Source of the DNA: an uncultured bacterium | Lineage (GTDB): Bacteria > CAIJMQ01 | Assembly: GCA_964573245.1 (NCBI GenBank) | Contig: CAZNJA010000048.1 | Location: 1 to 10,389, forward strand | DNA: 10,389 nt | Reading direction: 5' to 3' | Shown here: one piece after another, positions 2,597-9,845 of the stretch | How positions within the stretch are numbered: the first letter of the stretch is position 1 | How the letters are laid out: the number at the start of each line of letters is the position of its first letter | Notes under the pieces: generated by a model | Databases searched by the model: none | What the model was told of the DNA's origin: nothing | The model's input: only the letters and a program-made list of their open reading frames with translations | Program-made: the position numbers and the translations under genes

Positions 2597-2649
2597 AGTA
2601 TCCAGAATCCCCGCCTGCTTGCAAAGCGGGCAGGCAGTATCTAGTATCT
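2597..2649. repeat. AGTATC(T/C) heptamer tract interrupted by a 25-bp palindromic element (2610-2634, minus orientation)
   Basis: AGTATCC AGAATC[CCCGCCTGCTTGCAAAGCGGGCAGG]C AGTATCT AGTATCT. Confidence 0.75.
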
Positions 2650-2655
2650 ATCTTT

Positions 2656-2796
2656 TTATTTGCCTAATATCTTAAACATGCTTGTTCCGCAGTCGGGACA
2701 TTTGCCTTTAGCCGCTTTCCTGCCGTTTTTCATGGTCACTTCTTGGGTGTCCTTCATTTCCTTCTTCGCTTTGCATTTAACGCAATAGCCTTCCAT
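2656..2796 (-). CDS. 46-aa basic four-cysteine (zinc-ribbon-like) protein, DUF5679-like
   Basis: Not in the ORF track. MEGYCVKCKAKKEMKDTQEVTMKNGRKAAKGKCPDCGTSMFKILGK; the YCVKC...KNGR..KGKCPxCG pattern fits DUF5679. Perfect SD AGGAGG (2801-2806). Confidence 0.88.
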   Translation of the reverse strand: MEGYCVKCKAKKEMKDTQEVTMKNGRKAAKGKCPDCGTSMFKILGK

Positions 2797-2880
2797 AATT
2801 CCTCCTTTTTTATAATCCCGAACGATTTCAAGTCCGAGACAGTTTTAATTTTTATCGTTTTTTATTCGTGCAACAAGTAA

Positions 2881-2909
2881 ATGATATACCTTTATTCAAT
2901 CTTATGCAA
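2881..2909 (-). promoter_or_regulatory. Sigma70-type promoter for the DUF5679-like gene
   Basis: TTGCAT (2909-2904), 17-nt spacer, TATCAT (2886-2881). Confidence 0.5.
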
Positions 2910-3061
2910 TACTTTTCTGCCTGTTTCATTCCCGTCCTTCTTTACCGGGCGAGTATCCGATATTGAAAATTGGGCCGTATTATGCGGTAAAGCCCTTGAC
3001 ATCAGGCTTATAATCAGTTGGTGTTAGGTAAAGAAAGGGAAACCCGGGAATCAGTAAGGAG

Positions 3062-3295
3062 ATGAGTGGAATGATTATCAAAGTAATAGGCCGAAAAGAG
3101 GACTTGGATAAAAAGGTGAATACTCATTACCTGCTTAGCAACGGCAATATCTATACAAGGGAAGAAACTATAGATATGTGGCGACGCCGTTTACTGCCGG
3201 GTTACCATGTGCGTAACAGAAACGGGGTAGAAGAGTTGTGCAACACTCCCCATACCAAAGAAAGCGATAATATAGACAATCAACCGCTGATATAA
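3062..3295 (+). CDS. Small DUF3892-like protein (true start probably ATG 3071)
   Basis: Y.LSNG..YTREE.I...YHV..RNG...L...P.....DNIDN.P resembles the DUF3892 pattern. SD AAGGAG (3056-3061) abuts ATG 3062 but is 9 nt from ATG 3071. Confidence 0.65.
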   Translation: MSGMIIKVIGRKEDLDKKVNTHYLLSNGNIYTREETIDMWRRRLLPGYHVRNRNGVEELCNTPHTKESDNIDNQPLI

Positions 3296-3304
3296 TTCCT
3301 CAGC

Positions 3305-3333
3305 CCTGTATCCTGTGTGGTACAGGTTTCTCT
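3305..3333 (+). terminator. Probable intrinsic terminator between convergent genes
   Basis: CCTGTATC-CTGTGT-GGTACAGG followed by TTTCTCT, about 10 nt after the stop. A second G-U-rich hairpin lies at about 3337-3369. Confidence 0.45.
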
Positions 3334-3378
3334 CCTTCCCTCTTGATTTCGACTCAAAATCAGGGGGGATTTACGTAT

Positions 3379-3861
3379 TTAAAACTGCAATTGCCAGATG
3401 GAATAATTCAGATAAGCCGCAAAACTCACCCAAAGAATATACGGCGCCAAAAGCCATGCGGCAGGTTTGGAGATTTTGGAGAATGTAATTATAGTCGCAA
3501 GAATTGCCAGCCAAAGAAATATAATCTCAATGAACGCTCCGAATGGACTGTGCAATCCGAAAAAGATAATCGACCAAAATGTATTCAGCATTAACTGAAC
3601 TGCAAAAACACCCAGCGCTATTTTTACATCTCTGCGCTTAAGCCCGTTAGTCCAGATTAGAAATGCCGCAATGCCCATCAGAATATATAATGTCGTCCAC
3701 ACAGGGGCAAAAACCCAGGACGGAGGCGTAAGTTTAGGTTTGGCAAGTAAGGCATACCATGCAGGTATTGATTGAGCAGTAAACAAAGAACCGATTATTC
3801 CCGCAAATTCGCAAATTAAGATTGAAATAAAAAATTTTAAGAAACTGATTTTTTTGACCAT
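3379..3861 (-). CDS. tspO: TspO/MBR tryptophan-rich sensory membrane protein
   Basis: WY..L.KP..TPPSWVFAPVWTTLY..MG, QL.LN..WS.IFFG, AAWLL.PY..WVSFA..LN; five hydrophobic helices. Confidence 0.95.
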   Translation of the reverse strand: MVKKISFLKFFISILICEFAGIIGSLFTAQSIPAWYALLAKPKLTPPSWVFAPVWTTLYILMGIAAFLIWTNGLKRRDVKIALGVFAVQLMLNTFWSIIFFGLHSPFGAFIEIIFLWLAILATIITFSKISKPAAWLLAPYILWVSFAAYLNYSIWQLQF

Positions 3862-3865
3862 TTAG

Positions 3866-5038
3866 TCAGTTGTCTTCCTTTTCCTCTTTTTCTGAATCCT
3901 TAAACTCTTCTTTTTCTTTCAAAAGGTCTGTTATCTTGTCCGAATAAATAGCAAAACTATAATCCTTGAACAGATAACCTGAAGTAACAATACCTATCAA
4001 CTCACCATACTCATTAATCAAAGGCCCTCCGCTATTACCGAAAAAGATAGTAGCATCCGTCTGAATATACTCATCACGCAAAGCAGAAATAATCCCCTCC
4101 GTAAACGTGTTAGTCATTCCGATGGGAGTCCCCAAACTATAAACCCTATCACCCACACTTTGATATTTTTTAGGCGAAATAGTAATTATCTCCACATACT
4201 CCTGCGGCATCTTTGCCCTTAATAAAGCCAAATCCCTTTCCCTGGAATAAAAGTCTAAACGCGCATCAAACCTTGCGCCGGTATAAAGTTTAATTTCGTA
4301 ATATTGCGGTTCTTTAATTTTGGATTTTCTGCTTTCAACAACATGCTTGTTCGTCAGAATATAATAATCGTTTTCACCTTTTCCTATAATAGAACCCGTC
4401 CCCTGAGAAACCTTCTTATCACCCTCCTTAACATAAACCGTAACAACGCATTTGCGCATACTTGCATAAATTTCACCTGCGGAAAGTTTTTCCCTTCCCG
4501 GCATATCCCATTCTGATAACACATTAATACTTATAGATTCTTTTTTTGTATTTTCTCTTAAAAACTGTTTAAAATCCTTCTTGTGAAACGAACGGGGGAA
4601 AAACAGTAGACCTATCCCAATAATCACAGCTATTACTACGAACCTCTTTACATTCCTTTTTATTTTCACCCCTTTATAAATCCGCGCTTCGCTTATTTTG
4701 CTGCGGTAATACTTATTATCTATGCCGCAAACCTTTTTCAAATCCTTCAAAAACCTAAGGTCGGGACAGTCCAAAAGTTTATCGCTTGTAATTATCCCGA
4801 AGCACTCTTCAAAGATAAACTGTTTATCGTCCTTTGATAAATCCCCAATCTCGGATTCCAATACCTTCAGATTTATATCCTGAGTCTGGATTTTCCTTAA
4901 TATATTCTTTCCTTTTTCATCTTCAGCCAACCTCTCTATCAAATTGCCGACATAATCCCTCTCCTGCTTTACCATCTTCTCATTCGCCCATAAAGCAGCA
5001 GCACAAACCTTAAAAATCAATATCTTCTTCTTATCCAT
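3866..5038 (-). CDS. Membrane-anchored trypsin-like (HtrA/S1C-type, no PDZ) serine protease with an N-terminal TerB-like domain
   Basis: Catalytic triad motifs TNKHVV, RDLALL, IQTDA.I..GNSGGPL; single TM segment FVVIAVIIGIGLLFF; helical N-terminus with a duplicated A..A[N/D].....E pattern reminiscent of TerB (less certain). Confidence 0.85.
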   Translation of the reverse strand: MDKKKILIFKVCAAALWANEKMVKQERDYVGNLIERLAEDEKGKNILRKIQTQDINLKVLESEIGDLSKDDKQFIFEECFGIITSDKLLDCPDLRFLKDLKKVCGIDNKYYRSKISEARIYKGVKIKRNVKRFVVIAVIIGIGLLFFPRSFHKKDFKQFLRENTKKESISINVLSEWDMPGREKLSAGEIYASMRKCVVTVYVKEGDKKVSQGTGSIIGKGENDYYILTNKHVVESRKSKIKEPQYYEIKLYTGARFDARLDFYSRERDLALLRAKMPQEYVEIITISPKKYQSVGDRVYSLGTPIGMTNTFTEGIISALRDEYIQTDATIFFGNSGGPLINEYGELIGIVTSGYLFKDYSFAIYSDKITDLLKEKEEFKDSEKEEKEDN

Positions 5039-5073
5039 TTTTATTTATTCTAATTATCTCTTATTATTTCACA

Positions 5074-5369
5074 GGTATCCAGCATCTAGCCTGCCCGCCA
5101 ATCCTTAGTGGCGGGTATCTAGAATCGAGAATTCAGCAACTATCAACTAGCATTTTTCATTTATTATTTATCACTTGCCAAATGTTAATTGTTAATTGCT
5201 AACTGCCAAATGTTAATTGCTAATTTTAATATTTCGTTTCTTATTTCTTGGTCCCCAGTCTGTAGTCTGTAATTTATAGCTTATCGTTTATTACTTGCTC
5301 ATTGCTAATTGTTAATTGTTCGTCGTCCATTGTTACTTGCTAACTGTTGGTTGTTACTTGCTAATTGTT
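5074..5369. repeat. Mosaic of degenerate 7-bp tandem repeat tracts containing a 26-bp palindromic element (5090-5115)
   Basis: AG(T/C/A)ATCT-type units at 5074-5155; AATTG(T/C)T-type units at 5173-5228 (8 units) and 5293-5369 (11 units); TAGTCTG-type units at 5256-5290. Confidence 0.85.
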
Positions 5370-5375
5370 AGGTTC

Positions 5376-6428
5376 TCACCATTTCCACCCTGCACCCACA
5401 TATATAGCGGCTTCCTTTTTATCCTTTAAGAGCTTGATGAAAGCTTCGCCATCGCCTGCGAGTAGTTTTCTTGATAATTTAAGCTCCATGCCTAAATCTT
5501 TCCCCTCCTCATTCTTAATACTGAATTTGACCTCATCTCTCTTGGTCAACTTGGCATCAGCCCCAAACTTAATAGCTTTGGGTTTACCTCGCCAATCTGT
5601 GGTGGCGGGCCTGCCCGCCGAATCTTTTGTGGCGGGGTACTTAATTTCAAACAACAGTCCAACCCTCCGCTTTATCTTCCATTTGCCATAAAGGAACAGG
5701 GTCCGATTAACCGGCTTCCTTCTGTTAGAACCCCCTATGCCTATTTCGTATTTTATATAATCCTCATGCAGAAAACCCAAGCCGGTCCGGAAGTCAAAAC
5801 CGGATTTTCCGTCCGGGCTTAGTTCATAGGACAGCCTGTTCCGCTTAGTGATATCAAAAACACCTTTGAAAACGAGAGTTTCTTTCAGTGTCTTTTTTCG
5901 TATCAGTTGGGCCTTTTCATATTTATAAACGAGCCGGTGCTTCTTATCGAGCTCCCAGATGCCGTCAAGGGTCAGGGTGTCATGCCTGCCTTTTCCTTTC
6001 TTTACTTTAAAGGTAAGGCGGTTATGCTCATCCGCCTGCCACCTTCCCTCCAGTTTCAGAATATTTTTTATATCAAGGTTCTTTTCCGACCTTGTCGTGA
6101 CTGCAAAAGAGAGGGAACTGGAAGAAACGGATACTATCTGCCCCTGCAGGGTAACTTCGTCCCCTAATGTCTGCCTTCGCCAGTTATCCAGCGTCAGCAC
6201 CAAATCATGTTCTTTATTTAAAGACCATTTACCCCTTAACTTTACCTGATGCGGCGCCTTGAGATTATCCCCCATAGGGGCTTTGATATGATAAATCAGA
6301 GTATTGTTCGGCCCGGTTTTGAACTTTCCGTCAAACACCCTGCGGAAATAGGTCAGAGGAAGTTTTCTACCGGTTTCCCGAACAACCAACCTGTTATTAG
6401 GATCAACCTCGTATCGTAACTTTTGCAT
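5376..6428 (-). CDS. Hypothetical, highly basic all-beta repeat protein
   Basis: 350-aa ORF with about 9-10 repeats of roughly 30 aa, consensus L.L.G.W.(L/I)...(H/N).L.(Y/F).(I/L/V). Ends YVGAGWKW; no signal peptide evident. Confidence 0.8.
   Translation of the reverse strand: MQKLRYEVDPNNRLVVRETGRKLPLTYFRRVFDGKFKTGPNNTLIYHIKAPMGDNLKAPHQVKLRGKWSLNKEHDLVLTLDNWRRQTLGDEVTLQGQIVSVSSSSLSFAVTTRSEKNLDIKNILKLEGRWQADEHNRLTFKVKKGKGRHDTLTLDGIWELDKKHRLVYKYEKAQLIRKKTLKETLVFKGVFDITKRNRLSYELSPDGKSGFDFRTGLGFLHEDYIKYEIGIGGSNRRKPVNRTLFLYGKWKIKRRVGLLFEIKYPATKDSAGRPATTDWRGKPKAIKFGADAKLTKRDEVKFSIKNEEGKDLGMELKLSRKLLAGDGEAFIKLLKDKKEAAIYVGAGWKW
5587..5636 (+). repeat. Two tandem palindromic elements inside the CDS
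   Basis: CCTCGCCAATCTGTGGTGGCGGG (5587-5609, degenerate) and CCTGCCCGCCGAATCTTTTGTGGCGGG (5610-5636, 27 bp, exactly 9 codons). Confidence 0.8.
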
Positions 6429-6462
6429 AGTATCTAGTACATAGTACTTAGTATGTAGTATT
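6428..6462. repeat. TAGTA(T/C)N heptamer tract, five units, abutting the start codon
   Basis: TAGTATC TAGTACA TAGTACT TAGTATG TAGTATT. Confidence 0.85.
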
Positions 6463-6491
6463 TTGTCTAAGGTTTAGTGTCCAGCCAGATA

Positions 6492-6932
6492 TCATTTCAC
6501 AAGTATCTCTTTTGCTTTTTCTAAAAATGCTTCAGCGCTTTTGATTAACTCTTCAGCTCCGGTTTCGGAAAACTCCCCATGATAATCTGCATCTTCACGC
6601 AAAATCATTGCGTCATGCATTTTTCTTACCATTGCTTGCTCCAAAACACCTTCTTCCACAAACAAAGCCTTCAGGGCAACCAACAAAAAATAATGACTCT
6701 TTTCTCTGAAACACTTAGAGTAAACAAGCGCCCTTGCAGCGTGGAATATAGAATAATATGCCATTATAGTCGCATATTTATACTTCTCATTTTCAAATCT
6801 ATCCTGGGCTTCTTTCAGGTCATCCCCGGATTCTTTCAGCTCTTTTGTAACAAGATGCTTACCCTTTGGGAAAGGTAAAATCCTGCGTTTTGCAATCGCT
6901 TCTTTAAATTCTATATTCTCTATTTTTCCCAT
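6492..6932 (-). CDS. HEPN domain protein (UPF0332-like), putative toxin partner
   Basis: A...AYYSIFHAARAL, KSH and REDADY (Rx4Y variant of the HEPN motif); overlaps the upstream MNT gene by 13 nt. Confidence 0.9.
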   Translation of the reverse strand: MGKIENIEFKEAIAKRRILPFPKGKHLVTKELKESGDDLKEAQDRFENEKYKYATIMAYYSIFHAARALVYSKCFREKSHYFLLVALKALFVEEGVLEQAMVRKMHDAMILREDADYHGEFSETGAEELIKSAEAFLEKAKEILVK

Positions 6933-7459
6933 AACATGATCCCATTTAAAATTTCACTATAAAAAACCTTGTTATTCTTGCGCAACACAGCAAACTCATT
7001 TGGCGTATTCACAATGCATTTAACTTTCTCCCCAGATTTACTGTCAAAAATTATTTTTTGGACCTCTTTAGGTTCTCTTGTAAGAACAAAAATATCAAAA
7101 TCGCTACCAGCCGTATTTTCCCCTTTACTTGCGCTGCCATATAAAACCATTTGAAGAGATAAAGGGACCAACTTATCTATTAACGGTTTCAGAAATACTA
7201 TATTTTGGACAACTTTGAATTCTTTTATAAGAGCATTTTTGCGTTCTAAGCGATAAAAAGACATTCTGCCTCTATTTTCCCTCTGTACCAATCCCGCCTT
7301 TTCCAATTCTCTCAAAGCAAAGTTTGCCCCTGCCCTGCTTACACCCGCAAGTTTTGATATCTGACGGTCATAGAATTCCTCTCCTATATGCTCCATTAGA
7401 AAATAGAACACCTTCTGGTTATTTGTAGCATATAGAATTTTTTCTATTGAATTAGTCAT
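6920..7459 (-). CDS. Winged-HTH plus minimal nucleotidyltransferase (MNT) fusion, putative antitoxin/autoregulator
   Basis: N-terminal wHTH (RQISKLAGVSRAGANFALRELEKAGLV) and MNT motif LYGSASKG....SDFDIFVL (GSx10DxD). Confidence 0.9.
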   Translation of the reverse strand: MTNSIEKILYATNNQKVFYFLMEHIGEEFYDRQISKLAGVSRAGANFALRELEKAGLVQRENRGRMSFYRLERKNALIKEFKVVQNIVFLKPLIDKLVPLSLQMVLYGSASKGENTAGSDFDIFVLTREPKEVQKIIFDSKSGEKVKCIVNTPNEFAVLRKNNKVFYSEILNGIMLWEK

Positions 7460-7470
7460 AGCGCACCTCG

Positions 7471-7522
7471 TCTAATATATTAGATTTATGTCTATTATAT
7501 TAGATTAAGTTAGAAATGTCAA
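7471..7522 (-). promoter_or_regulatory. Consensus sigma70 promoter overlapped by a tandem palindromic operator
   Basis: TTGACA (7522-7517), 17-nt spacer, TATAAT (7499-7494). Palindromes TCTAATATATTAGA (7471-7484, perfect) and TCTATTATATTAGA (7491-7504), 20 bp apart. Confidence 0.85.
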
Positions 7523-7543
7523 CCTCCTTAGACCTTGCCCTGT

Positions 7544-7846
7544 TTATTTTTGTTGCTTAAGTTTGCCTTCTATACCGATGGTCTTGCGGATTATCTCTTT
7601 GAACTCATTATATATAGGGTATGACTTATTCAACCTGTAAAGTTTTAAATTGCCGAGTGTTCTGTGCGTAAACAAACCCTCTGCCTCCAGGTTATTCATT
7701 TCCCTGCGGATATTGCCTACGGAGTAGCCGAGCAGTTTTTCGAGCTGCCTTAGGTAATATTCCTGCTCGGGGTCATTGAAAAATAGTCCGAGAATATCCC
7801 GCCTTGTTTTTGATTTTGTTATTTGGGGGATAATTATATTATTCAT
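7544..7846 (-). CDS. ArsR-like winged-HTH protein; probably the N-terminal half of a truncated wHTH-MNT
   Basis: SKTRRDILGLFF.DPEQEYYLRQL.....SVGNIRRE...LE..GL......GN...Y.LN...PIY.E...II.KT.G is the typical N-terminus of wHTH-MNT fusions; the ORF stops where the MNT domain would begin. Confidence 0.75.
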   Translation of the reverse strand: MNNIIIPQITKSKTRRDILGLFFNDPEQEYYLRQLEKLLGYSVGNIRREMNNLEAEGLFTHRTLGNLKLYRLNKSYPIYNEFKEIIRKTIGIEGKLKQQK

Positions 7847-7847
7847 T

Positions 7848-7895
7848 GTAGTCCTTTCTGACTACGATTGTAGTCCAGAAGGAATGGGAAGTAAA
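7848..7895 (-). promoter_or_regulatory. Promoter and GTAGTC/GACTAC operator half-sites of the wHTH gene
   Basis: TTTACT (7895-7890), 17-nt spacer, TACAAT (7872-7867). Half-sites GTAGTC 7848-7853, GACTAC 7860-7865 and GTAGTC 7870-7875 cover the SD and the -10. Confidence 0.65.
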
Positions 7896-7903
7896 GGGGT
7901 TAG

Positions 7904-7945
7904 AAATGATAAATGACAACTGCTAATTGCTAAATGCTAATTGTT
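7904..7945. repeat. AA(A/T/C)TGNY heptamer tract, six units
   Basis: AAATGAT AAATGAC AACTGCT AATTGCT AAATGCT AATTGTT, 3 nt from the stop codon at 7949. Confidence 0.85.
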
Positions 7946-7948
7946 AGT

Positions 7949-8500
7949 TTAGGGCATCCAAATATCGTCTATTGTGTTGAATAGAGTAGGGTTGTCGAAA
8001 TCGGCGGGGACGATATCTTCAATAGGGCGGTTGAACAAATTATAACCCTGCTTGTAAAAGCCGTCCGTTATAAGTTCCGAACAGATTAAACGCTTTTTAC
8101 TGTTAAGTATATTTCTGATAAACAATAACAGCCTTCCGAGCAAACCGGCAACATCGGCAAGAATAGGGAAGCGCAAAAGCTGAAGGTAATCATAAGGGAC
8201 GTTGTTCATAGTCGCCCACCACAGCGCAACCTTTATTCTTTCATAATCGCTCTCGAATTTTCTCCTCATAACTTTTATTTCTATTCCCCTGTCGACATAC
8301 TTTTTCTGCAGATTGCTCACCACCGATTGGGGGATCCAACCTTCGACTAAATCATACCCGCCGATACTGCCCGCAACATGCGTCCACTTACTGCTCTTGC
8401 CATACCCCAGCTTCTTCTGAACGTTAATCGTCGCCCTCGTCCCCCCGGCAACCAGAATAATGTCGCCGATTTTGATTTTGTTTGGGTCAATTATCTTCAT
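7949..8500 (-). CDS. Permuted papain-like amidase (YiiX/YaeF, peptidase C92; NlpC/P60 superfamily)
   Basis: GDIIL, WTHVAG (catalytic His), PYDY, LICSELI (catalytic Cys after His, i.e. permuted order), IVPADF. Confidence 0.85.
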   Translation of the reverse strand: MKIIDPNKIKIGDIILVAGGTRATINVQKKLGYGKSSKWTHVAGSIGGYDLVEGWIPQSVVSNLQKKYVDRGIEIKVMRRKFESDYERIKVALWWATMNNVPYDYLQLLRFPILADVAGLLGRLLLFIRNILNSKKRLICSELITDGFYKQGYNLFNRPIEDIVPADFDNPTLFNTIDDIWMP

Positions 8501-8508
8501 TTCGTTAC

Positions 8509-8668
8509 GAGCATCTACTATTTAGTCTAATGTCTCAAGTCTAAAGTCTGTTGTTTATAAATGGGATGTGTCCCTAATTTTGTCCCTAATTTTTACTATT
8601 TTTAAAATTTTTAAATTTTTAATCATGTTTTCCTTGGAAAACAGAGGGGAGAGACCTAACCCCGTTTT
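8509..8668. repeat. Heptamer tract plus REP-like motifs
   Basis: NNGTCTN units at 8523-8557; tandem 12-mer TGTCCCTAATTT (8569-8580, 8581-8592); hairpin TGTTTTCC-TT-GGAAAACA (8626-8643); AGACCTAACCCC (8652-8663). Confidence 0.65.
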
Positions 8669-8679
8669 TGTACTATTTT

Positions 8680-9690
8680 TTATAAAAATCTAGGGTTTAG
8701 CACTATCAACTTGCTAACTTCTTTTGTTTTGACATCAAAATGATGACCAGATGCTATCGGTCTCCATATAGTTTTATAATTACTACATAACTTAACAAGA
8801 TAAGTGTTCATATTAAATATACTGACTTGGCTAATCAAATTTAATCCCCGCCACTCAATTGTAACAAGGTGTCCATTTGTTACTCTCATATTATATCTTT
8901 TTAATCTCCTATCATCATAAAGGATGGGGGGTTGATTTACAGCAAAGTAATCATTACTATTCCCTTTTCCATATCTTATAAAATTTCTTATCCCATTAAA
9001 TTCTTCCGAGAGAGCTAAATCTCTTCTCTCAATATAGGTTAAATAATTAAATGCTATTTTTGCTATACCTCGATATATTATCAATCCAATTCTTGCAGTT
9101 ATTTTAATCAATACTTTCTTTCTTTTCTTAACATCTTCTGGCCACTCTTGCCTATCTTCTAGCTTAGTATGCATGCCTCTTTCTTTAAGTATCTTTAACA
9201 AAAATTCCCGTTCTTTATCGTTTTTTTCTATAAGTTTAATATTCTTCCCCTTCATCTCATAACCTTGTTTCTTTAATTCTTTGACAGGCGGAATATCTTC
9301 TGGTTCAAAATAAACATACTTTTGCTCGTCATTTTTGAAAAAACCAACTTGTAAAACAGGTTCAATATCGATTTCATTAGGAATACCTGAGTATATTGGA
9401 GTGACTATGATTCCCCTAAGTTCTCCTTCATCAATTTTGAATTTTAGTCTCTCGTGCTTGGGTTTTCCACTTGATTTAATTCCGTGCCTATATCTTTGTA
9501 TTCCTTCAATGGTATCTCTGCCTAAATGTAATTCTATGTTATCGCCAAAATATTGATTGCATTTGTCACACACAGTTTGATTAAGAATAAGATTGTTGGG
9601 CGTAAATGTTCCATAGCATTGGGGTAGAACATGCTCGCGGTTTTTAAACTCATCGCTTGGTTTATCTTCTAAACAATAAATACATCTCAT
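8680..9690 (-). CDS. HNH endonuclease domain protein (HNH_5-like N-terminus, uncharacterised C-terminus)
   Basis: CIYC...EHVLPQCYG...VCDKCNQYFG zinc-binding HNH motif; later R.IAKIAFNY, typical of this group; visibly more AT-rich than pfkB. Confidence 0.85.
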   Translation of the reverse strand: MRCIYCLEDKPSDEFKNREHVLPQCYGTFTPNNLILNQTVCDKCNQYFGDNIELHLGRDTIEGIQRYRHGIKSSGKPKHERLKFKIDEGELRGIIVTPIYSGIPNEIDIEPVLQVGFFKNDEQKYVYFEPEDIPPVKELKKQGYEMKGKNIKLIEKNDKEREFLLKILKERGMHTKLEDRQEWPEDVKKRKKVLIKITARIGLIIYRGIAKIAFNYLTYIERRDLALSEEFNGIRNFIRYGKGNSNDYFAVNQPPILYDDRRLKRYNMRVTNGHLVTIEWRGLNLISQVSIFNMNTYLVKLCSNYKTIWRPIASGHHFDVKTKEVSKLIVLNPRFL

Positions 9691-9743
9691 AAAATCTATT
9701 TTCTAGGTTTTTTGTTGGTTAAATATCATCTCTCAATGTGTTA

Positions 9744-9814
9744 CCTGTCCCCCTTTTACTTTCGCAAGAAAGTAGGGGGAATGCCTGCCCGCCTCTGGCG
9801 GGCAAGACCTGACC
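9744..9814. repeat. Composite palindromic repeat cluster
   Basis: Hairpin TCCCCC-TTT-TACTTTC-GCAA-GAAAGTA-GGGGGA (9748-9780); element CCTGCCCGCC-TCT-GGCGGG (9784-9802); CAAGACCTGACC (9803-9814). Confidence 0.75.
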
Positions 9815-9845
9815 AAAACTCGCAACTATTTATCATCTATCAATG

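Follow-up and report, generated by a model that had tools for sequence, protein, structure and literature searches.

The window analyzed here is the entire 10,389-base contig C48 (CAZNJA010000048.1), which is part of a metagenome-assembled genome (MAG) of 1.46 Mb (110 contigs, 38% GC, 93% complete; termed G000) of an uncultured bacterium. The GTDB phylum of the host comprises only 9 species in the collection used. The window contains five copies, one of them degenerate, of a family of hairpin micro-elements that we refer to as E (Table 1). These five copies had been proposed from the letters of this DNA alone (the original prediction) and were confirmed by a pattern search: the exact pattern, CCTGCCCGC-N(3-20)-GCGGG, matched four times in the window, and none of 200 dinucleotide-preserving shuffles contained any match.

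The 2610-2634 copy is located between a DUF5679 gene (2656-2796) and a metallophosphoesterase gene (1774-2508) and forms an imperfect hairpin on each strand. It is absent from the same spacer in G001, a sister species of the same genus (92% complete, 10 contigs), and in the related genomes G002 and G003; in all three, the spacer was too diverged for an exact empty site to be obtained. The 5090-5115 copy lies upstream of a trypsin-like protease gene (3866-5038, minus strand), and its DNA fold has an energy of -8.9 kcal/mol (z = -4.2). The two tandem copies at 5587-5609 and 5610-5636 are translated in frame as PATKDSAGRPATTDWRG in an open reading frame (ORF) whose G003 orthologue has a 45-nt in-frame gap at both copies and whose G002 orthologue contains a decayed version. 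The 9784-9802 copy comes directly after another hairpin repeat (9749-9781). It is old and shared with G002, since a diverged copy is present at the orthologous position there; no empty site was found for it, the orthologous place in G002 being occupied. An Rfam covariance search of the window retrieved nothing at the copies, and its sole match was a chance-level microRNA at 5125-5230 (E-value, 0.63).

Table 1. Copies of E in the window, their host ORF, and adjoining tandem arrays
Feature	Positions	Strand	Description
E copy, 25 nt	2610..2634	-	CCTGCCCGCTTTGCAAGCAGGCGGG; exact match; intergenic, inside AGTATCT-type 7-bp array
AGTATCT 7-bp array	2636..2650		Target context; adjoins the 2610 copy
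E copy, 26 nt	5090..5115	+	4-nt CCTG tail and CCCGCC/GGCGGG stem; intergenic, in 7-bp array
Degenerate 7-bp arrays	5151..5374		Target context; downstream of the 5090 copy
Host ORF of two tandem copies	5376..6428	-	350 aa; no Pfam family; conserved in G002 and G003
Degenerate E copy	5587..5609	+	CCTCGCC...GGCGGG; in tandem with the 5610 copy, inside ORF 5376-6428 (-)
E copy, 27 nt	5610..5636	+	In frame, reverse orientation, as PATKDSAGR within ORF 5376-6428 (-)
Shortest E copy, 19 nt	9784..9802	+	CCTG tail, 6-bp stem, 3-nt loop; intergenic

Anatomy of E and its precise presence or absence in orthologues

The exact pattern retrieved 36 copies from G000, and the same pattern reversed, used as a control, retrieved none. 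With up to one mismatch per arm, about 80 loci were found (reversed controls, 0 to 2), so that the high copy number anticipated for the element was observed. Most copies measure 24 to 33 nt, rarely 19 to 26 nt, with 24, 25, 27, and 33 nt as preferred lengths. E is a GC-rich imperfect palindrome, and most of its copies have two constant arms, CCTGCCCGC and GCAGGCGGG, whose pairing extends over nine positions and includes one T·G and one C·A mismatch. In another reading, either strand consists of a perfect stem of 5 to 6 bp preceded by a tail of 4 nt, CCTG or CCCG. There is also a one-sided form, CCTG plus CCCGCC...(A)GTGGCGGG with the stem CCCGCC...GGCGGG, to which the window copies at 5090 and 5610 belong. 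In accordance with the original prediction of conserved arms and differing loops, the centers vary among the G000 copies, as they do among lineages, but they tend to extend the helix: the mean is 1.83 consecutive pairs versus 0.64 for shuffled centers, and 0 of 1,000 shuffles reached the observed value. E thus has the form of a short imperfect palindrome present in many copies, as do the repetitive extragenic palindromes (REPs). Its copies are mostly singlets, with about 5 close pairs, mostly direct, among 83 relaxed loci. A preceding G had been proposed as a common feature of the intact copies; this applies to all four in the window, but only to 8 of the 36 genome-wide and to 22 of 90 in G000 and G001 together, and is therefore not a feature of E.

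Comparisons between species, at roughly 75 to 87% DNA identity, showed E to be a genuine insertion unit that is acquired en bloc, with the exact ends CCTG...CGGG and without target-site duplication, and whose occupancy differs among species of one genus. In a lolD-like ABC ATPase gene, 33 extra bases in G000 are exactly CCTGCCCGC...GCAGGCGGG, and the gene is uninterrupted in G001, G002, G003, G004, and G007; the 27-nt copy in trmD of G000 corresponds to an exact gap in the same five genomes. For the reciprocal test, all 52 E loci of G001 (54 pattern matches) were compared with G000. A G000 orthologue covered the site for 21 genic copies, of which 11 showed a gap of exactly the element length and 2 nearly so, the remaining sites having larger gaps (3), E in both genomes (3), or no gap (2). 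At the nucleotide level, five gaps matched the ends of E to the base, and seven could slide by 1 to 7 nt because the end bases are similar. No flanking repeat or target duplication was detected at these 12 nucleotide-resolved sites, nor at lolD or trmD. In the opposite direction, nine genic G000 copies had a covering match on the 593-kb contig of G001 (C11). Six of them were cleanly absent there, namely, those in trmD, folC, radA, a B12-radical-SAM gene, mnmG, and lolD, while the transketolase copy was shared and two cases were ambiguous. The 27-nt gaps at trmD, mnmG, and the loci L089 and L105 revealed that the unpaired CCTG tail of one-sided copies belongs to the inserted block. A metagenome scan at the lolD site, with the pattern restricted to gaps of 3 to 33 nt, yielded one filled allele, on a contig from the Joint Genome Institute (JGI). 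The original prediction of a very small nonautonomous unit that inserts cleanly and without duplication is borne out by these exact block gaps, and the precise empty alleles in relatives, at lolD, trmD, and the G001 sites, have boundaries that match CCTG...CGGG.

An additional segment was noticed in radA (G000:C23, ~12440-12500), where 9 further residues, encoded by CCTGCCTCGCC...GGCAGG and absent in G001, are located 3' of the 33-nt insert. It may be a second, diverged hairpin insert.

Copies in genes, tandem arrays, and other hairpins

E had been treated as an extragenic element. This requires revision, since 14 of the 36 exact G000 copies (39%) lie in frame inside conserved genes, the window copies at 5587-5636 being included, and 22 are found in non-ORF DNA. 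The interrupted genes encode an ABC ATPase, FolC, CysS, Mfd, MnmG, RadA, Der, UvrC, a radical SAM protein, transketolase, RACo, TrmD, and Thi4, in addition to the ORF of the window. These are bona fide genes, with matches to ABC_tran, tRNA_m1G_MT, GIDA, Mur ligase, UvrC, TRCF, Radical_SAM, transketolase, and other families. The proportion of G000 in ORFs of 100 aa or longer is ~88%, and that of non-ORF DNA is roughly 12%; the density of E per base is roughly 11-fold higher outside genes, an excess that is the expectation from purifying selection on random insertion.

The genic copies share several properties. (i) Their length is mostly a multiple of 3: among the 90 copies of G000 and G001, this was the case for 31 of the 34 that are flanked on each side by 60 or more open codons, compared to 37 of the 56 others (Fisher P = 0.010). 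The 25-nt form is intergenic in 13 of 14 copies, and the genic copies are almost exclusively of the 24-, 27-, and 33-nt forms. (ii) They are read in both orientations and in several frames, giving peptides such as PAR..AGG, xLPAS..QAG, PAT/PAC..AGR, PPAK..RAG, and TRLLRSGQ, with at least five frame/orientation combinations in use. (iii) Solved homologues of TrmD and LolD show a gap at the E insert. Since most copies (64 of 90) contain no stop in any of the six frames, we infer that the genic inserts are evidently translated as 8 to 11 extra loop residues.

To characterize the target context, E was removed in silico and Tandem Repeats Finder was used to search for an array across the junction. 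Such an array was obtained for 16 of 50 intergenic copies (with period 7 in 11 of the 16) and 4 of 34 genic copies, compared with 7 of 400 random non-ORF positions. E hence prefers short tandem arrays, mostly of 7 bp, which it interrupts with the register undisturbed. The original prediction on the register was reproduced, with a 7-bp array across the junction upon deletion of either the 2610 or the 5090 copy (a GTATCTA array at 5090). E was found to be placed in the same way in a KSB1 MAG and in a 1-Mb genome of an uncultured bacterium. In G000, no tandem period is more frequent than 7 (241 of 960 arrays); the arrays are independent of E, because they also occur in a sister genus without E. 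Heptamer arrays are also reported for Beggiatoaceae (PMC4679880). As further observations on these arrays, the intergenic DNA of the window consists largely of degenerate 7-bp arrays with differing units (2636-2650, 5151-5374, 6427-6461, 7904-7940, and 8524-8549), and at locus L101 of G001 (C11, ~21568-21624) two copies in the same orientation are one 7-bp array unit (GATTCTG) apart.

E is also nested in other small hairpin repeats that occur without it as well. A CCCCACACC...GGTGTGGGG hairpin occurs in 5 copies that lack E, whereas 4 further copies contain E, always at the same junction. Of these 4, two form 20-residue inserts in folC and a radical SAM gene, and the composite itself has therefore spread. 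Another family, CCCGTTAGAAAT...ATTTCTAACGGG, has inverted ends of 12 to 13 nt and 11 copies in G000, with 3 to ~100 nt between the arms; the interiors contain assorted nested small hairpins, and the uvrC copy contains E.

The window harbors further small repeats of this kind. A member of the CCCGTTAGAAAT...ATTTCTAACGGG family is found at 153-269, with the interior hairpin GTCCCGATGTTACATCGGGAC. Three consecutive hairpins (e.g., CCCCCTACATTTCTTTGAAATGTAACAGGGGG) at 1615-1750 are multicopy across the genus, as BLAST searches gave dozens of matches in G001 to G004 to 1615-1663 and 1661-1750, and the hairpin at 9749-9781 resembles them. The motif following the 9784 copy had been reported to be echoed at 8652. 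Indeed, the 10-mer AGACCTRACC, which directly follows that copy at 9805-9814, recurs at 8652-8661, giving 2 matches in the window versus 0.02 expected and 8 in the genome. In the orthologue of window positions 9735-9815 in G002 (contig C85, L033), an extra 20-nt hairpin-like segment, TTTACCTCGCCTTCGGCGTG, is present between the 19-nt copy and a CAAGA(C/T)CTG motif.

Distribution of E and search for a mobilizing enzyme

Genomes of the same genus contained 56, 32, and 11 pattern matches, and the sister genus contained none; E is thus a many-copy element in the genus as well. G004 and G005 are among the genomes that do not carry E. Another genus of the same class has its own center variant, CCCT[TC]CGGGAG, between the same arms. 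Exact 27-mers of E were retrieved from MAG records of Candidatus Omnitrophota, Saprospiraceae (four MAGs), Chitinophagales, Cyclobacteriaceae, KSB1, Saccharimonadales, and an uncultured bacterium. Five of these genomes had 65, 18, 12, 9, and 1 pattern matches (reversed controls, 0 to 1), and the copies inspected were mostly intergenic, except in the 1-Mb genome, where two are located in one 547-aa ORF. E was found in only three viral contigs (two of high GC content with type C and one with type A; none had the 33-nt form), which is insufficient to make a case for a viral vector. A REPIN-like doublet was noted on one putatively viral IMG/VR contig (L070, 67% GC): at 8782-8857, two exact 24-nt copies, inverted relative to each other, are separated by 28 nt, and each of them occupies the loop of a longer palindrome, GACGCGGCA...TGCCGCGT.

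The only Y1_Tnp match in G000 is a 436-aa ORF on contig C12 (L001, 1429-2739). Its N-terminal Y1_Tnp-like domain lacks the HUH motif (SSDKVYLLI instead) and is fused to a predicted membrane segment and to a C-terminal domain paralogous to a 202-aa protein encoded just upstream (L001, 299-907). It has the appearance of a transposase domain that has been domesticated or inactivated, and no E was found near this gene. Among 40 relatives, the number of E copies was unrelated to the presence of Y1 genes, and no association emerged in four carriers from other phyla either. Y1_Tnp genes were counted in the carriers G002 (4), G003 (2), G007 (3), G010 (5), G041 (6), and G045 (2); the G003 match is an ordinary IS200/IS605 element with a TnpB-sized neighbor. 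When ~1.5 kb of flanking DNA was examined at 18 Y1 loci of seven other genomes, none was flanked by E, the closest being one 19-nt copy at a distance of 1.2 kb and beyond another ORF. RAYT-like genes (for REP-associated tyrosine transposase) in Saprospiraceae are flanked by palindromes other than E. A search for long repeats (at least 200 bp) detected tuf and three short pairs as the sole cases in G000 and gave no match on the 593 kb of G001, although MAGs may have lost such sequences. The genes between close E pairs in G001 were ordinary housekeeping genes, with no transposases among them. No resident transposase is therefore assignable to E. The predicted link to RAYT or IS200/IS605 Y1 transposases was not upheld, in view of the unflanked Y1 loci, the high-copy genome G001 without Y1, and the lack of a fixed tetranucleotide 5' of E.

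Interpretation and relation to known systems

We consider E to be, with a probability of roughly 0.72, a family of orphan REP-like micro-elements mobilized in trans. Mobilization in trans had been proposed originally and is supported as far as the comparative data go. E would be excised or copied in the form of a single-stranded hairpin with its tail and would then be joined into transiently single-stranded DNA, such as replication forks, slipped tandem arrays, and extruded hairpins, by a trans-acting enzyme recognizing the E arms. Tentatively, this enzyme might use an HUH/Y1-like strand-transfer logic and be either unrecognized or unassembled here; we give less credence to an unrecognized enzyme or a host replication/repair activity. 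It appears unlikely that E, as a tagged hairpin of 24 nt, ranks with the smallest mobile DNAs known and moves via single-stranded or slipped DNA (tandem heptamer arrays, loops of other hairpins, and replication forks) without any resident transposase. A still unrecognized enzyme class or a housekeeping nuclease/ligase would then be responsible, and the arms would be kept across at least three phyla because they are read by it. If so, E and the co-resident hairpin families would point to a general, undescribed pathway of "hairpin transposition" in small-genome uncultivated bacteria.

A number of observations weigh against this explanation, the first three of them against a Y1-like mechanism. 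(i) Flank logos of the 90 copies showed no fixed base or target tetranucleotide 5' of E. The base at position -1 was A in 37, G in 22, C in 19, and T in 12 copies, so that the preferences are weak, and a G-A-T at +1 to +3 stems largely from one array family. (ii) There is no clear strand bias: 22 of 32 copies on the 593-kb contig are on one strand (P = 0.05, confounded with gene orientation), the top strand of E is on the locally G-rich strand in 21 of 32 (P = 0.11), and the closest ORF has the same orientation as E in 20 of 32. (iii) Searches for Y1 genes gave no match in G001 (56 E pattern matches), G006, and G044 (9 copies). (iv) Not all orthologous sites are clean. The gap in cysS is 15 nt instead of 27 and lies in a variable linker, no gap was present at der, L088, and L100, and the gaps at three G001 sites exceeded the element. 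At three sites, both species have E. In two such cases, uvrC (G000:C42 9477-9525 versus L091) and a ligA-like gene (G000:C22 11575-11601 versus L109), the species have different E subtypes at the same codon position, 27 nt versus 24 nt and one-sided versus two-armed, which could reflect repeated hits or turnover in situ. (v) The mobility of E is inferred from presence and absence between species, the mobilizing gene not having been found, and all genomes are MAGs, in which repeats and transposase genes are often unassembled.

Among the alternatives, the propagation of small hairpins by host replication and repair, independently of sequence, is rather improbable. Hairpins would be excised as oligonucleotides and ligated at nicks or slipped structures, and E would be the most successful of several hairpin lineages, crossing phyla on any transferred DNA. 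The coexistence of several unrelated hairpin families in the same small genomes, the near absence of long multicopy sequences in G000 and G001, and the enrichment of E in slippage-prone arrays are consistent with this. However, a purely structural cut would not predict an unpaired CCTG tail within the inserted block, and the arms are identical across phyla while the centers vary, which points to sequence recognition. We know of no precedent for such propagation. Still less probable is a classical REP/REPIN-RAYT system, in which a resident single-copy Y1 (HUH) transposase recognizes the CCTG tail and stem. It would account for the tail-plus-hairpin anatomy of each strand, the conserved stem mismatches, the lack of target duplication, and the Y1_Tnp genes of the six carriers listed above, but not for the HUH-less Y1 match in G000 without E nearby, for the carriers without any Y1 match (G001, G006, and G044), or for 18 Y1 loci without flanking E. 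Furthermore, the E tag is neither GTAG nor CGTC, and E occurs mostly as singlets and not as inverted doublets. E thus lacks the defining tag, the RAYT gene flanked by the repeats (REPtron), and the predominantly extragenic location, often as inverted doublets, of a REP-RAYT system proper.

That E is a site selected by the host, such as a protein-binding palindrome, an mRNA-stabilizing hairpin, or a terminator, and not selfish DNA, is very unlikely. Its excess in non-ORF DNA, where 22 of the 36 copies are found, and the conservation of its arms across phyla would fit such a function, and roles of this kind are reported for REPs (PMC3733652). Yet the other 14 copies are inserted in conserved proteins, at positions that are specific to the lineage and with both orientations and several frames represented; sister species differ in their occupancy, the right flanks lack the T-run of an intrinsic terminator, and the window gave no Rfam match at E. 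An assembly artifact is hardly credible, and neither is a repeat motif in the protein that is under selection for the peptide it encodes. Although all data come from MAGs and many genic copies read PAR..AGG or PAT..AGR, E is present in independent assemblies from several phyla and studies and in the JGI contig at the lolD site, and the many frame/orientation combinations and the abundance outside ORFs are at odds with a selected peptide. That reading was rejected, as E is read in every orientation and in several frames, and the majority of its copies are noncoding.

In the part available to us, Di Nocera, De Gregorio and Rocco 2013 (PMC3733652) describe REPs of 20 to 40 bp that carry a GTAG or a CGTC tag. 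RAYT genes accompany the former, and no transposase is associated with the latter; several species have REPs inside ORFs, frequently those with repair or tRNA-related functions. Like E, the CGTC REPs, which include RPE-4 and RPE-6 of Rickettsia conorii, are small GC-rich palindromes with an unpaired tag and no transposase gene, and a sizeable share of them is inside ORFs, in frame, often in repair or tRNA genes (PMC3733652). The corresponding hosts of E are uvrC, mfd, radA, the ligA-like gene, trmD, mnmG, and cysS. E differs from CGTC REPs, as far as they are covered in that part of the paper, in its tag (CCTG, or CCCG on the other strand), in forming 24- to 33-nt singlets instead of mostly dimers, and in its carriers, which are Omnitrophota-like, Bacteroidota, and KSB1 MAGs versus mainly Proteobacteria. 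The same part of the paper describes, for CGTC REPs, neither nesting in other hairpins nor insertion into tandem arrays whose register is preserved. With GTAG REPs and REPINs, E shares the imperfect palindrome of 20 to 40 bp, the 4-nt 5' tail, and the many copies; it differs in having no REPtron, in carriers without Y1, in singlets instead of inverted doublets, and in the 39% of intragenic copies.

Y1 chemistry is expected to leave no target duplication. The IS200/IS605 elements combine hairpin recognition, a single-strand logic, and precise ends without target duplication with two different subterminal hairpins and insertion 3' of a fixed tetra- or pentanucleotide. E inserts without duplication as well but has a single hairpin and no fixed 5' target, and for lack of the latter it does not qualify as a derivative of the IS200/IS605 type. 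The RPE-1 palindromes (for Rickettsia palindromic element), attributed to Ogata and colleagues in 2000, are reportedly found in frame in housekeeping genes and tolerated as extra protein segments. E resembles them in behavior only, i.e., as an in-frame palindromic insertion in housekeeping genes that is read through; RPE-1 is about 100 to 150 bp, several times longer, and restricted to Rickettsia. The mobile GC clusters of yeast mitochondria are short, GC-rich, optional palindromes in an AT-rich genome, located between genes and in one coding gene, and their mobilizing activity is unknown; they are organellar and eukaryotic and unrelated in sequence, so that there is a resemblance only. A DDE-derived miniature inverted-repeat transposable element was also considered, as the arms could pass as terminal inverted repeats, and was rejected given that the resolved sites lack a target-site duplication.

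E is most appropriately classified with the REP-like palindromic repeats, as a new and very small orphan variant whose in-frame presence is tolerated by essential genes. No description of the motif, or of such elements in this lineage, was found in the open-access literature, supplements excluded, and among the papers listed for 10-mers of the motif the uses were unrelated, such as primers and promoters. Broader literature searches retrieved only papers on REP, RPE, and MITE elements. If the interpretation as an orphan REP-like element is correct, E would be a minimal case for how palindromic repeats without RAYT move, a question left open for CGTC REPs in the 2013 survey (PMC3733652). Its assets are its size of 24 to 33 nt, ends defined to the base by many independent empty sites, and a measurable target preference, and its occurrence in several phyla makes phylogenetic profiling for the missing enzyme possible. 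Through the inserts, essential proteins of uncultivated bacteria with small genomes would gain 8 to 11 residues; alignment, gene calling, and phylogenomics can be misled by such segments, whose presence or absence provides markers at the species level.

Two observations concern the genes around the tandem copies in the window. The protein encoded by ORF 5376-6428 has its nearest Atlas clusters among "lipocalin-like/hypothetical" proteins, commonest in Candidatus Omnitrophota, with weak porin-like leads. Next to it, on the minus strand, a HEPN gene (6492-6932) overlaps a gene for a nucleotidyltransferase plus winged helix-turn-helix domain (6920-7459), which is the typical layout of HEPN/MNT toxin-antitoxin-like pairs.

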